DNA of 59,873 nucleotides, filler included, from Candidatus Woesearchaeota archaeon (GCA_016188265.1; 7 parts of 6 records of this genome joined end to end with filler, not necessarily neighbours in it), one strand, 5' to 3'. Counted from the first letter of the whole stretch, positions 45,290 to 51,504 are shown. Notes: generated from the letters alone by a model not told the origin. Made by a program: numbers and translations.

Positions 45290-45428
45290 TAAAGTGAAAA
45301 TCGAGCTTAATTTGGTTTGCATAGCCCACAATTTACAGAAAATCTTCTTGATGACGGCAGCCAAAAGCTGCTAAATTTATTTTTTATTTTATTTTTTGAA
45401 TTTTAAAAAATAATTGTGAGACAACGTC
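45290..45428 (+). mobile_element. 3' end of an IS1182/IS5-like DDE transposase gene and its probable right end
   Basis: KVKIELNLVCIAHNLQKIFLMTAAKSC* (typical ...L.C.AHNL.K tail), then candidate terminus TTGTGAGACAACGTC at 45414-45428. Confidence 0.7.
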
Positions 45429-45663
45429 CGCTGTTATACGCTTTTTCTCGAAGAGAAAAACGAGGTCTAGTGCAACGTCCCGAAGGGAAACCGAAGAGTT
45501 AAATTTTAGTGGCAGTCGTTCCATCAAGCGAACAAAGTGAGCCATCAAGAACAAGTATCAAGGAGACAATTTTAGTTAGTCGTTTCGTAGGGGGAAGGGG
45601 CGTCGTGTTTTTTGCTTCTTTTTTACAAAAAAGAAGATAGGAAGAGGCGTCGTTAAAGTCGTT

Positions 45664-48600
45664 TCATCTCTTTAATTTTATTTTGTCTTTTTCTTCATCT
45701 ATTAATTTATTCTTTATTAAATGATTAATTGCTTCTTCAACTTTATCTCTTATTTTATTTCCTGTTCGATTATTATTATAGATTCCTCTTGCTATATCTG
45801 CTGTTATAGCTTCTTTTGTTGTGCTGAAAGAATTCTTTAAAATATCAATTATTGCCCCAGCTAATTCCTCTTTTGGGATTAAAATAAATGGTCTGTCACT
45901 TTCTTCTGAAATTTTTACTTCGGAGAATATATTTATAGGTTCAAGGGAGACACTGTTTTGATAAATATTTATTCCCTTATTTTTCTTCAAATCCCTTAAT
46001 ATTTCTTCAAATAAATTTTCTATTCTTCGTCCTAATTTTTGAATACCCATTGAAGACAATACTCTTTTGTATAATAATTCTTTTTCAATTAGACTCTCTA
46101 TTTCCAGAACTTGCATTATTTTTCTTTTAATGATCGAAACTGCCGAATAATTGTTAAGGCTTCCGTAACTATCAAATTCTAAATCCATATTTGATTTTGA
46201 AAGCTCAGCTATTTTGTATTTTTTATATTTATCCTTGAGTTCAATTTCCTTAAAGTCTTCTTTTTCATCAATTTTTGATAAACAATTATTCTGTTTGGGT
46301 TCTGGAATACCTTTAGATTTCAAGATATTTTTAACTTTCTCCTTTACTTTTTCGATTTCGTATTCTTTGTTATTTAACCAATCATCAGACCAAATTCTGA
46401 TTATATTCCAACCGAGATTCTCTAATACAACTTGCCTTATTTTGTCTCTATCTCTTGCAAATCTTGAAGAATGATATTGCGAGCCATCACACTCAACACC
46501 CAAAATATATTCTCCGGGTTTTTTTGGATGTTTTATGGCTAAATCTACCCTGTATCCAGAACAACCAATCTGACAGCTTACATCAAACCCTTCTTTTTTT
46601 AATTCCCCATAAACAGCTTCTTCAAAAGAAGAATCAAATTGTAGCCCCTCGGTTTTCTGTAAGAATTTAGTCAAATCTTTACTTTTTGCAAAATCTAAAT
46701 AATATTTTAAGTACCTTACACCTTCTGCATTGATTTTATCTTCGTCTAAGTCGTCGGGAAGCATTGACGAAACAACAACAGTTTTAAATCTTGAACGAGT
46801 TATTGATACATTAAGTCTTTTGTACCCTCCTTCTTTGTTCAATGGACCAAAATTATAACTAAATTTACCTGAGGAATCTTTACCATAACCTACACTTAGA
46901 ATAATAATGTCCCTTTCATCACCTTGCACGGTTTCAAGATTTTTAACAAATACTTCCTCATTATTAACATCGATTGACTCTTCTATAGGTATTCCTGCTA
47001 TTTGAAATTCCTCTCTAATCACATTTTCTTGAGCCATACTAAAAGCGATAATTCCAAATGACTTTTTAGGGTATTTCTTTTTCAAATCCCTATAAATTTT
47101 AACAATCTCCCTAGCTTCAATCCTATTTTTCCTGGATTTCCCTCTATCATAGACTCCTGTTTTGATATATACACAATCCAGTCCGCTATTATCATTTTCC
47201 TTAGGGTTGGGAAAGGTTATTAAGCGGTTTTCATAAAAAAACCTATTGGAAAAAGATATAAGAGTCTCATTATTACTTCTATAATGCCAATCTAGGGATT
47301 TAGTTCTGAATTTAGTTATTGACTCACTTAAGAAGCTCTCTAAATCTTCAATTTCTTCTTCACTTTCATCATCTTGACTTAAGAAGAATGAAGTGGGGGG
47401 GTAGTTGTTGTGTATCCCCCATTATTATGGCCTGTTTTGCTCTTATAAGGCAAGGAACGGCATCTTCTGGCATAATTTGAGAAGCTTCATCAAATATGAC
47501 TACATCAAAATTTATATTTTTTGGATTAATATATTGGCTGACAGTCAGAGGACTCATCATAAAGCAAGGTTTCAAAGCAAAGGCTAAATCAGGTATTTGT
47601 TCTAATAAATCCCTAATCGGTTTTAATCTTCTTTTCTTTTCATTTTCTCGTTTGAGAATAGAAACCTCATTAGAACCCATACTTGAGTAATTGTCTTTTG
47701 GTTGCCTCTCTTCAACAGATTCCATAACTTTATATCTAAAAATATCTCTAACTTTCATATCATCATCTCTGAATTTTTCAACAAGGCTTTTTGGAGAAAA
47801 CTTATTCGACTTTTTGAGTATTTCATCTAAAATCTGGAGATAGTAGGACTTAAGAAAAACCTTGCTGAATTCACTTCTGACAGCATTACTAAAATATTTT
47901 TTAATGAATTCTTTTACTTCTTCATCTAACTTTATGGATTCTTCTTTAAATGCGAGAACCTCTTTAAGATTCTTAAATTGGTTATTCAGTTTCTCCAAAA
48001 CATTTAGAATATCTTGAATTTTTTCTAAACAGGTTAATTGTTTAACCTCAAAGAACTCTTCCATTTCATTTAAAGAAGAATAAAAATCTCTAAATAATCC
48101 TTTCTGATTGAAATTAGATAATAACTGGATTATAGCATAATTTTTACCTTTTGAAATTTTATTTGATATTTCAAAGAGAGGGATTAAGTCCTTACAATAT
48201 TTATCTAATCTGGAAATATTGCTTAGATTATTACAATCTCCGATAATCTCTGATTTTTTCTTGTTCTTTGAGACAATTTCATTAAGTTTTTTATTTATTT
48301 TTTCATATTTGGCTTTCTTCTCAAAAAGAGAGAGCCATTCAGCGTGCCCTATTTTTATTTCTGCATATTTATCCAAACTAGCCTTATTGGTTTTATATTC
48401 TTGATTAAAAAGTCTATAGAAAAACGAGGTTTCTCTGAATATCTTTTCAGCTTGATGTGTGTTTAAGTCATCAATAAAAGAATCTTTTACTCTCTTCGTT
48501 ATATCCTCCCGCATCTCTTTTATCTCCAAAAGAACAGATAGTAACTCTTTTATCAGAGAATTGTATTCTTCAAAATCTTTTGAAAGCAAATAGGAGAATT

Positions 48601-50182
48601 CGCGGTTAAATTTGAAAGCAACGACTTTATCGTTTAATTCGTTTAGTAAGTTTAACTCGACAAAAGAGTTTATCTCTACCCCCGTTTCTATTTTTAGTTT
48701 ATCTATAGACCCAATTATTTTCTCAGTATTCTGATCAAAATTCTTTAGATTAGAACTGAATCTATTAATAGCTAAAGAAGTATTCTTGTCTTTCTGATAA
48801 TTGAAATATATGTTTTCGTTAGGATTTCCTAACAGAGTAAAAGAGGAATTAAATCTCTCTAGCTTGTCAAATAATATTGAAAACTCTTTTTTGTTCAGGG
48901 ATATTGATCTTTTTAGTGGAAAATCTACAATCTCGTTTTTAGATAGTTTCGCCAACTCTCCTCTAACATCATAAACCGATAACTCCCAAGGAGAGTGTTT
49001 TTCACATAAGAATTGATAAAATTCATTGATATCCTTTTGAGATTTTAAATAAGATGAAACATCATCTCGTTTTATCATTGAAGGTATAACCGGAGAAGTT
49101 TGAAGTTCTTTCATAAATTGTTTTATAACTTCTCTTTTGTTTCCTTTGTAATTATGTAAATTTAGGCAGTATCTTCCTAACCCAACTTCATCGAGTCTTT
49201 TTTGGACTACATTTAAAGCAGCCATTTTTTGGCTCACAAAAAGAATTTTTTTATTCTTTTCGATAAGGGCTGAGATGATATTTACAATTGTTTGACTTTT
49301 ACCTGTTCCCGGAGGCCCTTGTAATACAAAAGTAACTCCTGCTTTTGCTAACTCTATTGCTCTTTTTTGGGAAGAATCTGCTGGGAGAACATCTACGCTT
49401 GTAGTATCATCAAATTCCTCTCTCTGCAATTCAGAAATTTCATCCTGTAAAGCATCTCTGTCCCCAACATACGCTTTCACTAAAGGGCTATCTTTAACCA
49501 ATTTTTCATTAAAACTCAAATCTTCATACATGATAAATTTTTGATATGAGAAAATATCCATATAAACATCTTCGGTAATTTTCCAATCCTTCATTCCTTC
49601 TATTTGCTTCTTAAGGTAAGACAGATATTCAGAAGGGGTTTGATTCTCAAATTCATTTATTTCTATGCTAAACTCGTGAGAAAGCTTCTCTATTAATGCT
49701 GGGTTTAATTGCATTTCTCCAGAATTAGAATCAATCTCAAATTTGTGAGTTTCTTTGCTAATAGCAGATAGTCTGCTGATTTCTATAGGCCAAAGAAAAA
49801 TAGGAGCTTCTAAAAATAACTCGGAATGGTCTGCATCCTTATATCTCAAAATTCCCAAAGATAAAAAACAAGTGCTAACTCCTAACTCTTGAAAGTTTTC
49901 TTTCGCCTTTAAATAAAGAGCATATAATTTTTTCTCAACTATTTCCTCTTCTTCAGAGCATAACCACTGCCTGTCTTTAACATTATCCTTTTTCTCTTTT
50001 AGGATAAATATGTTTTGCTCATTTTCCAAATCTTCAATTACTTTAGAGAAAGAGGGAGATATTATTTTTAGAGATTTTGATTTTGTGAATCTATAACGCA
50101 CAAGATTATTTCTTTTAGATAAATCTATAAGTTTCTTTTTCCAATAGTCTATCTTCTTATCAATAACCTTGCTTACATCCAT
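45664..50182 (-). pseudogene. DUF4011 - SF1 helicase - Vsr/MTES_1575-like nuclease - DUF3320-like protein (Hhe-like), split by one extra base at G7 47395-47401
   Basis: WKKKLIDLSKRNNL; QGPPGTGKSQTI; FDEASQ; GDTQQLPP|TSFF...WHYRS; ETVQGDERD; RLNVSITR; FDSSFEEAV...YRVDL...ECDG..YH...RDRD; 1505 aa if the run were G6. Confidence 0.88.
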
Positions 50183-50206
50183 TTGATAATCTCCCTTGGT
50201 GCATAT

Positions 50207-50689
50207 TTATCTCTTATCATTTAATGCCCTCTGAAATTCCTTTCTAATCTCGTTTATCTTTTTTTCATTAAGCTTGATTAAGATTGACTTGCATTTTACT
50301 AAAAACTCAGGAGCATTCTTTACCATTTTATTGTATTGCTCATCTGAAACAGTCCTGTCAATGTAATATTGAGAATCTATTCTTGCCTTCAAAGAATCTT
50401 CTGTGAAATCAAGGTCTTCTTCGCTAAAAAATTCTCTGAGAAATCTCTTTGCGAACGCTATTGTACAGGAATGAATCTCACATTTTATGCCTATTTTTAT
50501 CAAAACTGAGTAAAGCGAAAAATAGAGGGTATAATATGCGGTTGAGATTTTCCAATCTTTTATTATATTTACCCTCATTGACTCTAATGCTTCTTCAGCT
50601 TTCTTGATATATGCCTCTGCAAGATTTGAATTTGGTTCAATTAAACCTAAACCTTCTTTCTTTCCAGCACACCATTTTATCTTATCCAT
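50207..50689 (-). CDS. HEPN domain protein
   Basis: AEAYIKKAEEAL, TAYYTLY, EIHSCT, RIDSQY; overlaps the upstream MNT gene. Confidence 0.85.
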   Translation of the reverse strand: MDKIKWCAGKKEGLGLIEPNSNLAEAYIKKAEEALESMRVNIIKDWKISTAYYTLYFSLYSVLIKIGIKCEIHSCTIAFAKRFLREFFSEEDLDFTEDSLKARIDSQYYIDRTVSDEQYNKMVKNAPEFLVKCKSILIKLNEKKINEIRKEFQRALNDKR

Positions 50690-51272
50690 ATTTCATCACC
50701 TTTTTAATAAACAGCTCTGTATTTTTAAAGATTATGTGGTTCTTTAATACTTCTTTTATTAGGATATCTTGGTTTACATTCTTCTCAAATGTTTTTAATG
50801 GATAACATTTTATGCTTATTTCAATCCCTAAATTTCTTGAAACTTTCTTGATTTCCTCTTTTTTATAGTCTCCCGCTACAAAAATGTCTAAATCAGATTC
50901 TTTGTTAGATATTCCTTTTGCATAACTCCCAAAAATAACGCCTATTCCATCAATAAAATTACCTATTTTTTCTATAACTTCTTTCACAAGAAGATTTTTT
51001 TCCATAAATGCTATTGATTTGTATTGCTCTACAAATATAAGATATCTATTGCTTAATTCGTTTATTTTTAATTTATAAGATTTTATTTTGCCCTTCACTT
51101 TTGATTCTATGATTCCTTTGTTTTCTAAATCTTCAAGAATTAGCTGTGCTGTTCGGGGGCTTATTTTAAGCAATTTTTCAACTTCTCTTATGTAATATTC
51201 TCTATCAAATCCATTTGTAAATAAAGAAATGATTTGTAAGCCATTCTCAGTAATGTTTATTTTATTATACAT
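50682..51272 (-). CDS. wHTH + minimal nucleotidyltransferase (MNT)
   Basis: N-terminal HTH (YIREVEKLLKISPRTAQ); IFGSYAKG...ESDLDIF. Confidence 0.88.
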   Translation of the reverse strand: MYNKINITENGLQIISLFTNGFDREYYIREVEKLLKISPRTAQLILEDLENKGIIESKVKGKIKSYKLKINELSNRYLIFVEQYKSIAFMEKNLLVKEVIEKIGNFIDGIGVIFGSYAKGISNKESDLDIFVAGDYKKEEIKKVSRNLGIEISIKCYPLKTFEKNVNQDILIKEVLKNHIIFKNTELFIKKVMKYG

Positions 51273-51273
51273 A

Positions 51274-51312
51274 TGTATTATTTAGAATACAGCTACTATT
51301 TAAATCTTTTTG
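51274..51312 (-). promoter_or_regulatory. Archaeal promoter with candidate operator for the MNT-HEPN operon
   Basis: Minus strand AAAAAGATTTAAATA (BRE/TATA) about 25 nt before ATG; inverted repeat TGTATT-N6-AATACA at 51274-51291. Confidence 0.5.
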
Positions 51313-51504
51313 TTTTCGTTTCGTCACACCATCCCCCGTTCGTCGTTTTTCTTTCTCGTTAAAATTGTCTCCTATCAGTTCGTGCCACTAAAATTTAATT
51401 GCGTATAACTATACATATATGCAAAGTGCTAGATTTTGGGGTTTTAGCCTTTTTTGGGCTTGGATTTTAAAACTCGCATGCGTATTTTCCGTATCTTTTT
51501 TGGA

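Follow-up and report, generated by a model that had tools for sequence, protein, structure and literature searches.

Gene modules bounded by inverted Xer recombination sites, the dif (pdif) modules, have been described in plasmids and chromosomes of Acinetobacter. According to excerpts of three reports (PMC10132070, PMC13141974, PMC6449649), these modules often hold toxin-antitoxin or other adaptive genes and carry no recombinase of their own, the orientation of the sites alternates along arrays, and insertion sequence (IS) elements target the sites. Archaeal and bacterial dif sites are reported to have imperfect inverted arms of 11 bp on the two sides of a 6-bp spacer, and in archaea the flanks are conserved too; in the excerpted account of archaeal Xer/dif resolution there is a single dif per chromosome, at a distance from xerA, and cassettes do not occur (Cortez et al. 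2010, PMC2958812); the excerpted part of a review of archaeal tyrosine recombinases gives XerA only as a resolvase. Here we describe a unit at positions 45432-51409 of a 59,873-nt stretch of DNA (the window) from Candidatus Woesearchaeota archaeon (GCA_016188265.1). The unit is a real, sharply bounded gene cassette with candidate defence genes as cargo, and it probably represents one cassette of an Xer/dif-type cassette system of DPANN archaea (Pacearchaeota/Woesearchaeota). The window consists of contigs of one genome chained end to end with N spacers; this genome (G000) is that of a tiny groundwater archaeon (0.92 Mb, 31% G+C, 98% complete), and the cassette lies on its contig C6 (Table 1).

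Comparison of the two ends of C6 revealed three exact blocks, A, B and C, that are colinear and together make up one modular inverted repeat, with arms of ~230 nt on the left and ~100 nt on the right. Inserts of 57 nt and 46 nt separate the blocks in the left arm, and a G-string lies inward of the blocks on both arms. A reading of the DNA made from the sequence alone (the sequence-only reading) had proposed the outermost pair of 9-mers, block A, as the limits of an integron cassette. Taken alone, this pair is at chance level: C6 has 400 inverted 9-mer pairs, and when the two 400-nt ends of C6 were shuffled 1000 times, at least one pair arose in 73.5% of the shuffles. The longest exact inverted match is 16 nt long, and the maximum reached in the 1000 shuffles was 13. 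The arms also stand out by composition, with 6.1 and 7.0 CpG per 100 nt where the cargo has 1.15 and the window as a whole 1.26, so that the flanks earlier called CG-rich are indeed CpG-rich. Over ~210 nt the 3' arm of C6 aligns with the 3' arms of nine other cassettes (see below) at a mean pairwise identity of 72%, compared with 43% in the 60 nt outside, and its 5' arm matches a profile made from the 5' arms of metagenome loci with an nhmmer E value of 1.4e-26. An alignment of both arms with MAFFT missed the blocks; local alignment and word matches were anchored on them. Elsewhere in the genome, the words GCGTATAA and TTATACGC occur in unrelated contexts. Two other readings of the arm, as an origin of replication and as a small RNA, were dropped: the arrays are multicopy and the arm is without internal pairing (by eye).

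As a second line of evidence, we searched for the 22-mer at the tip of the arm (51388-51409) in other DNA and found it in 37 metagenome contigs and 7 species genomes, 44 loci in all, whose records are labelled Woesearchaeota, Pacearchaeota, Nanoarchaeia, one 'Methanosarcinales' metagenome-assembled genome and Altiarchaeales IMC4 (a 1.39-Mb scaffold). Each of these loci has one ~100-nt 5' arm (nhmmer E 1e-10 to 1e-28) that always ends in TAAC, and the ungapped identity is 0.56 over the 78 nt inside, with the 22-mer excluded, versus 0.30 outside. The base that follows TAAC varies among the 37 distinct loci (24 have A, 5 each have G and T, and 3 have C), and the DNA beyond it takes one of three forms: a structured, gene-less linker, a compact palindrome ATTGCGTATAA-N6-TTAAACG.., or, 5-6 nt on, the TGTTAT.. 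start of another 3' arm. When the 26 loci with more than 1.5 kb of DNA on the left were inspected, a matching 3' arm was present 1.1-7.1 kb upstream in 12, of which 10 are distinct, C6 included. The 3' arm starts with TGTTATACGC in nine of these ten cassettes and with TGTTAAGTTCG in one; in the nine cassettes other than C6 this start comes after a linker stem, next to its 3' strand. Because a search with the arm profile gave neither a second nor an inverted arm at any of the loci, the 3' arms were located with a short motif and by inspection; three motif matches (L074, L077 and -7664 in L102) were dropped as chance matches in coding sequence.

The cargo between these arms differs from cassette to cassette. 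Six of the ten hold restriction-modification sets (types I, II and III), C6 holds the helicase set described below, and the others hold a radical SAM gene, an SPFH gene with others, and YdjM; thus 7 of 10 cargos are restriction-modification or candidate defence genes, and none of the ten cassettes contains a transposase. The outside neighbours vary by locus as well, among them xerA, linker arrays, enolase, acetate kinase and ThyX. How sharply the arm ends is seen in loci L064 and L085, which agree in 400/400 nt of the cargo side, have an identity of 0.34 on the opposite side and part 4 nt after TAAC. This was the one clean pair among 496 in the ungapped comparison; a gapped comparison, in which unrelated AT-rich DNA aligns at ~0.6, found nothing. 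The same arms and linkers also occur in chromosomal contigs beside genes for ribosomal proteins, enolase and RNase HII. With shared arms, varied cargo and alternative neighbours, the 9-mer pair does mark true cassette boundaries, and the idea of a cassette, as put forward in the sequence-only reading, holds in the sense that this unit belongs to a set of many that have their ends, but not their cargo, in common.

A nearly identical ~100-nt 5' arm ending in GCGTATAAC was seen, without cargo, at ~10022 of the Altiarchaeales IMC4 scaffold (L103, MCBF01000001.1). It lies between housekeeping genes, in a local dip to 40-43% G+C in a genome of ~50-56% G+C, and may be the trace of a transfer between phyla.

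We also compared C6 with contigs of four public groundwater runs (X1, X5, X6 and X10), of which X1 may be the source sample. These data are assembled contigs of mixed populations, not raw reads, and so tell of presence, not of frequency. In X1, the depth is 238 over the left flank up to 45429, 22.5 over the cassette and 41.8 over the right flank; the contig of the right flank, at about twice the depth of the cassette, begins at 51406, and a second left neighbour joins at 51390. A contig of X5, which comes from another study, matches the cassette up to 51408 and then continues into different DNA, with a new 11-6-11 site followed by a TGTTAT.. arm. Alternative neighbours are therefore observed at the junctions of this cassette itself as well as among its relatives. 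One further variant was noted inside the cassette: in a minor contig of X6 (depth 5.75 vs 26.2) the helicase open reading frame (ORF), 45654-50207, is precisely missing and 14 other letters stand in its place, so that 45653 is joined to 50208 in a version of the cassette that keeps only the MNT-HEPN pair.

The junctions of C6 have the form of Xer sites. At the right junction the two 11-bp arms of a 28-bp dif-like site agree in 8/11 positions; the sequence-only reading saw no clear partner arm for this upstream site, and the partner in fact adjoins it directly, at 51415-51425. The inward arm of the left junction is the same as that of the right site, and its outer arm belongs to a multicopy IS-bearing segment. 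The cassette is thus bracketed, as a dif module is, by two inverted Xer-type sites with 11-bp arms and a spacer of ~6 bp, the left spacer being 9 nt. The two outer flanks of C6 are unrelated to one another, and no target duplication was seen at its tips. In 76 family genomes nothing significant matches the right flank (51405-51504), which in X1 extends into a 3313-nt contig. The left flank is covered in X1 by a contig (45290-45429) whose depth of 238, against 22.5 for the cassette, marks a multicopy segment abutting the cassette. It holds the end of a transposase gene, which matches the last 18 positions of PF13751 (DDE_Tnp_1_6) weakly, at an E of 0.026 that is below the cut-off; a fragment on contig C19 that is 66.7% identical to it matches PF13751 at E 3e-8. 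This multicopy segment (window 45290-45438) stops at the left tip of the cassette and carries an arm-like ATTGTGAGACAAC motif of its own, and in this position it resembles the IS1202-family elements that target pdif/dif sites in Acinetobacter.

In relatives, the two arms are found on either side of a hairpin. BLAST searches with C6 and its right arm against the 76 family genomes (77 with its own) found pieces of both arms in intergenic DNA, and in G001, G072 and G006 the right-arm motif (..ATTGCGTATAAC) is followed by a hairpin region, then TGTTA.. and then left-arm modules. Because relatives carry both arms around the hairpin region, the two arms of C6 are the two sides of one site type. The hairpin region, or linker, has a conserved fold: a TAACA/TGTTA stem and a bulge of 2 nt are followed by a stem of 10 bp and by a three-way junction in which GAAGT and ATTTGG are invariant. 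Among seven copies, compensatory changes occur in 17 of the 35 base pairs of the linker. Rfam has no family that matches the linkers. A loose linker pattern, AACATNGG..CTGTTA, matched about as often as the control and was given up for a covariance model, R1, which has matches in 18 of the 77 family genomes. The linkers form same-strand arrays, of which the one on G001:C18 has seven sites within 11 kb and the one on G072:C38 has five, while other contigs have pairs; they reach up to 10 sites per genome, more than the single dif per chromosome of a resolution system. At L045 (4470-5484, from G001:C14), two linkers stand ~900 nt apart, and between them lie two small ORFs of 91 and 108 aa; the contig at L045 ends inside the second linker, which suggests that linkers interrupt assemblies. 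Small hairpins in L006, L012, L045-L049 and window 45442-45500 nearly all have C-GNA-G loops (GAA, GCA or GTA, for example GCGAAGC). Loops of the C-GNA-G type make unusually stable DNA hairpins, and their presence hints that single-stranded or cruciform DNA matters here.

The recombinase that accompanies these sites is XerA rather than an integron integrase. The IntI model TIGR02249 reached its cut-off of 265 bits in 0 of 77 family genomes. The best score was 127.6, and the matches cover only positions 2-184 and 238-314 of the model, skipping 185-237, which we take to be the approximate place of the IntI-specific additional domain around patch III. (The BLAST and IntI-model tallies over the 77 genomes include G050 and G068-G071, which are flagged as unpublished; none of their specific loci was used.) In four relatives, xerA lies just downstream of, and co-oriented with, linker sites (G001:C12, G072:C7, G066:C3 and G052:C19). 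The linker-adjacent recombinase has 257-268 aa, and its best NCBIfam model is XerA (NF040815), with 213.5 and 225.8 bits at a cut-off of 220. Of the 30 loci with at least 1 kb of DNA to the right of the arm, 8 have a XerA gene within 3 kb on that side (7 of 25 with five same-flank pairs counted once), and of the 30 loci with at least 1 kb to the left, none has one there. The own genome has three PF00589 matches, none of them on C6, and the earlier remark that no integrase is visible agrees with the absence of any integrase gene from this contig.

We hypothesize that a palindromic attachment region has been split and that each arm is one half of it. If the cassette formed a free circle, the halves would lie together as 5' arm - core - 3' arm; in the integrated state, the arms bracket the cargo as inverted repeats with the tips TGTTATACGC and GCGTATAAC. 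The junctions are dif-like cores with 11-bp arms and a short spacer, which in many copies is widened by the structured gene-less linker, and the linkers would themselves be gene-less modules, variable arm inward, that alternate with the gene cassettes. A XerA-type tyrosine recombinase of the host would cut and rejoin the cores, by which cassettes would be inserted, excised and reshuffled, much as dif modules are on Acinetobacter plasmids and with a function similar to that of an integron. Besides its own promoter, the cassette of C6 carries the MNT-HEPN genes and a gene for a PDC-S37/Hhe-like SF1 helicase with a fused PD-(D/E)xK nuclease. A broader proposal, which we put forward tentatively and hold with less confidence than the membership of C6 in an Xer/dif-type system, is that DPANN archaea run an integron-like gene capture on their housekeeping XerA, with arrays that shuffle restriction-modification and other defence systems between lineages and C6 as one such cassette, captured in different aquifers with alternative junctions. 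Given the near-identical Altiarchaeales arm, the XerA-based system may extend across phyla.

Several observations weigh against the reading of C6 as an Xer/dif-type cassette. The spacer lengths of 5, 6, 9 and 14 nt and the hairpins in many cores are atypical of Xer sites. Neither a recombination event nor a circle or an empty site was observed, and all junction evidence comes from assembled contigs of mixed populations. A 3' arm is lacking within the available DNA in 14 of 26 loci, and no more than 8 of 30 have XerA close to the arm. In favour of arms that travel together, the 5' and 3' arms of one cassette fit each other slightly better than foreign pairs (mean score 80.5 vs 77.0, reached by 260 of 20000 permutations), but this signal is weak and confounded by relatedness. 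The XerA of the own genome is a 107-aa C-terminal fragment by IS debris, and the genome has one other short recombinase ORF. The own genome has no R1 site, and the window has none even with filters off. C6 is without an assembly link to the bin, as its ends have no overlap with other bin contigs although many of these overlap mutually by 141 nt. Its tetranucleotide profile is atypical, with r 0.932 vs 0.982 +/- 0.013 and only 0.7% of fragments lower. Homologues of the helicase occur in 6 of 301 genomes of the order (own included), and the five other loci, which are from other families, show no linker or arm in their short flanks.

Among the alternatives, the one that survives best, though we consider it unlikely, takes the arms as static chromosomal landmarks, such as protein-binding arms of a dif region or insulators of a defence hotspot, with the cargo swapped by homologous recombination anchored on the conserved arms, without a site-specific recombinase. 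It is favoured by the single occurrence of the arm at each locus, by TCGT motifs that recur along the arm about every 10 or 20 nt, a spacing like that of protein-binding sites (by eye), by the conserved flanks reported for dif sites in Thermococcales (excerpted in PMC2958812) and by the mostly defence-related cargos, like those of defence islands. Static landmarks fit less well with outside neighbours that vary by locus, with a divergence that sets in within 4 nt of TAAC and not at variable points, and with compact junctions that have the 11-6-11 form of a recombinase core. It is improbable that C6 comes from a plasmid, a virus or another organism, with the arms flanking a replication or packaging region when circular. 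The missing assembly link and the atypical tetranucleotide profile would be in keeping with such an origin, and G-strings with inverted repeats resemble origin elements, but these arms and linkers also occur within chromosomal contigs, next to the ribosomal-protein, enolase and RNase HII genes mentioned above, no replication or capsid gene is present on C6, and its own two ends do not overlap. A transposon or composite element with long terminal inverted repeats, moved by a transposase, is very improbable: arm conservation does stop at the tips and the end of a DDE transposase gene lies 60 nt from the left tip, but the ten cassettes are free of transposases, their flanks are always dif-like cores or linkers and not random targets, target duplication is missing at the C6 tips, the transposase segment is a separate multicopy unit (238 vs 22.5), and the two outer flanks of C6 are mutually unrelated. 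The least credible is a true integron cassette, as the sequence-only reading had it, with IntI acting on a folded attC and its gene lying a little beyond the contig end: termini of the AAC...GTT form, sites that fold into hairpins and show compensatory changes, co-oriented arrays in relatives (beside xerA in four) and the integrons reported in Nanoarchaeota (excerpt of PMC9668308) speak for it, but no family genome reaches the IntI cut-off and positions 185-237 are skipped, the adjacent recombinase is XerA by NCBIfam, the sites are dif-like or linker sites and not plain attC, conservation reaches 100-230 nt inward from the cassette ends, compact palindromes of double-strand type also act as junctions, and the cassette has its own promoter.

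Returning to the Xer/dif-type cassette on C6, its cargo consists of three genes on the minus strand, which Pfam and PADLOC matches confirm as they had been read earlier, a candidate defence gene with an MNT-HEPN pair (Table 1). The first gene, for MNT, matches PADLOC PDC-M05A at E 3.8e-15, has the motif FGSYAKG...DLDIF and overlaps the HEPN gene by 8 nt. The defining motifs of such pairs are the Rx4-6H RNase motif of HEPN and the GSx..DxD motif of MNT. No Rx4-6H motif was found by eye in the translation of the HEPN protein, which may thus not be an RNase toxin; toxin-antitoxin activity of the pair is uncertain because the HEPN protein is without Rx4-6H and MNT has a winged-helix N-terminus. 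The promoter proposed earlier, with its TTTAAATA box, is in place. A ~22-nt stretch around this box (51296-51320, ACTATTTAAATCTTTTTGTTTTCG) has 90-100% identical copies upstream of genes in many family genomes and probably represents a promoter/initiator consensus that these genomes have in common.

The most likely role of the helicase-nuclease is to sense invading DNA and cut it. The domain order DUF4011-helicase-Vsr-DUF3320, assigned earlier to Hhe, stands, with a nuclease domain that Pfam names MTES_1575; the Hhe model itself gives weaker, partial matches only, and the best PADLOC model is PDC-S37. The gene is broken into two ORFs, 50182-47369 and 47085-45664, which match PDC-S37 at E 6e-172 (positions 4-975) and 1.4e-129 (positions 1088-1545 of 1550). 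The frame is broken because of one extra C in the C7 run, and the helicase-nuclease is predicted to be switched off in this population by the +1 frameshift. In X5 (5.6/5.6 depth), X6 (26.2/26.2) and X10 (11.2/11.2), which come from three other studies, the run is one base shorter and the gene intact, the frame being restored because one C is missing; in X1 the shorter run has 0/22.5 depth. The C7/C6 difference could reflect a pseudogene or a slipped-strand on/off switch.

Table 1. Features of contig C6 and its cassette (positions in the window)
Feature	Position	Strand	Description
Contig C6	45290-51504		6215 nt, nearly all occupied by the cassette
Transposase gene 3' end	45291..45374	+	in the left ~82 nt of C6; IS1182/IS5-type DDE, 27 codons + stop
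Left junction	45413..45444		ATTGTGAGACAA - CGTCCGCTG - TTATACGCTTT; dif-like core, 9-nt spacer, without linker hairpin
3' arm	45432..45663	+	block A, two small hairpins, block B, 46-nt module, block C
3' arm, inner part	45590-45600; ~45615-45636	+	G-string; T-rich hairpin
Block A	45433-45441 / 51401-51409		GTTATACGC / GCGTATAAC; 9/9 exact, outermost pair
Block B	45499-45514 / 51383-51398		16/16 exact
Block C	45561-45574 / 51360-51373		14/14 exact
Helicase-nuclease	50182-45664	-	DUF4011, SF1 helicase AAA_11/AAA_12, MTES_1575 PD-(D/E)xK nuclease, DUF3320 (Pfam)
C7 run	47395-47401	-	inside helicase motif GDTQQLPP; one extra C
HEPN-domain protein	50689-50207	-	160 aa; PF05168, E 4.7e-7
MNT	51272-50682	-	196 aa; winged-helix N-terminus + Pol-beta-type nucleotidyltransferase; PF18765/PF01909
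TATA box	51297..51304	-	TTTAAATA; ~30 nt upstream of MNT start codon
5' arm	51310..51409	+	G-string complement, C' 51360-51373, B' 51383-51398, A' 51401-51409
Right junction	51398..51425		28-bp dif-like site ATTGCGTATAA - CTATAC - ATATATGCAAA, 11-6-11
Right flank	51410..51504		outside the cassette

Some features of the remaining genome were noted in passing. An Rfam scan of the window found only 5S rRNA and two tRNAs. Contig ends of G000 (C7, C10, C16, C23, C24 and others) have short repeats in common that occur at 3-6 genomic places. On contig C19 (L001, 1462-2697), the truncated XerA lies beside a DDE_Tnp_1_6 fragment and IS3-type OrfA-like ORFs, a mobile-element graveyard.

If XerA does move these cassettes, archaea could capture genes as cassettes in a second way, one that needs no integron integrase and relies on an enzyme already present in nearly all of them. 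It would help to explain how tiny, streamlined DPANN genomes retain and swap defence systems, and with defined sites and one enzyme it would be suited to in vitro testing. Surveys based on IntI or attC models would miss or mislabel such arrays. Literature on XerA with DPANN/dif, integrons or Nanoarchaeota yielded no such arrays, and the supplements on clusters of attC sites lacking integrases (CALINs) in PMC9668308 may include them.

With integrons and CALINs, as excerpted from Ghaly et al. 2022 (PMC9668308), the arrays described here share a recombinase gene beside co-oriented, hairpin-separated units, the AAC...GTT pattern and accessory cargo. They differ in that the recombinase is without the IntI-specific domain, the crossover seems to split a palindrome, and both cassette ends have conserved arms; the units have promoters of their own and can be of 1-7 kb with several genes, and the recombinase gene lies downstream of the array in the same orientation. 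As regards attC, the AAC/GTT tips and the covarying hairpin in relatives speak for a likeness, and the three-way junction with invariant unpaired motifs, the plain 11-6-11 sites of duplex type at some junctions and the conservation far into the cassette speak against it. Archaeal Xer/dif resolution is similar in having a XerA orthologue and the same site architecture, but here there are many sites with gene modules between them. As for the cargo, the helicase-nuclease has the same domain order as PDC-S37/Hhe and matches PDC-S37 nearly end to end; here this candidate defence gene is frameshifted, the host is an archaeon and the Hhe match is partial. The MNT-HEPN pair is like MntA-HepT type pairs in its overlapping genes and nucleotidyltransferase motif, and unlike them in the HEPN protein without Rx4-6H and the winged-helix N-terminus of MNT.

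Elements without a recombinase of their own that integrate at an Xer site and can pile up in tandem are known as integrative mobile elements exploiting Xer recombination (IMEX). IMEX are phages or islands at the single dif of a bacterium, whereas the modules here are small and numerous and have shared arms. The nearest described system appears, by this comparison, to be the Acinetobacter dif module. As in Acinetobacter, orientation alternates, with cassettes (constant arm inward) and short linkers (variable arms inward) taking turns. Here, in contrast, the host is an archaeon with a single XerA instead of XerC/XerD, conserved arms of 100-230 nt lie inside the module and many cores hold a three-way-junction hairpin, and the arrays are chromosomal and adjoin xerA.

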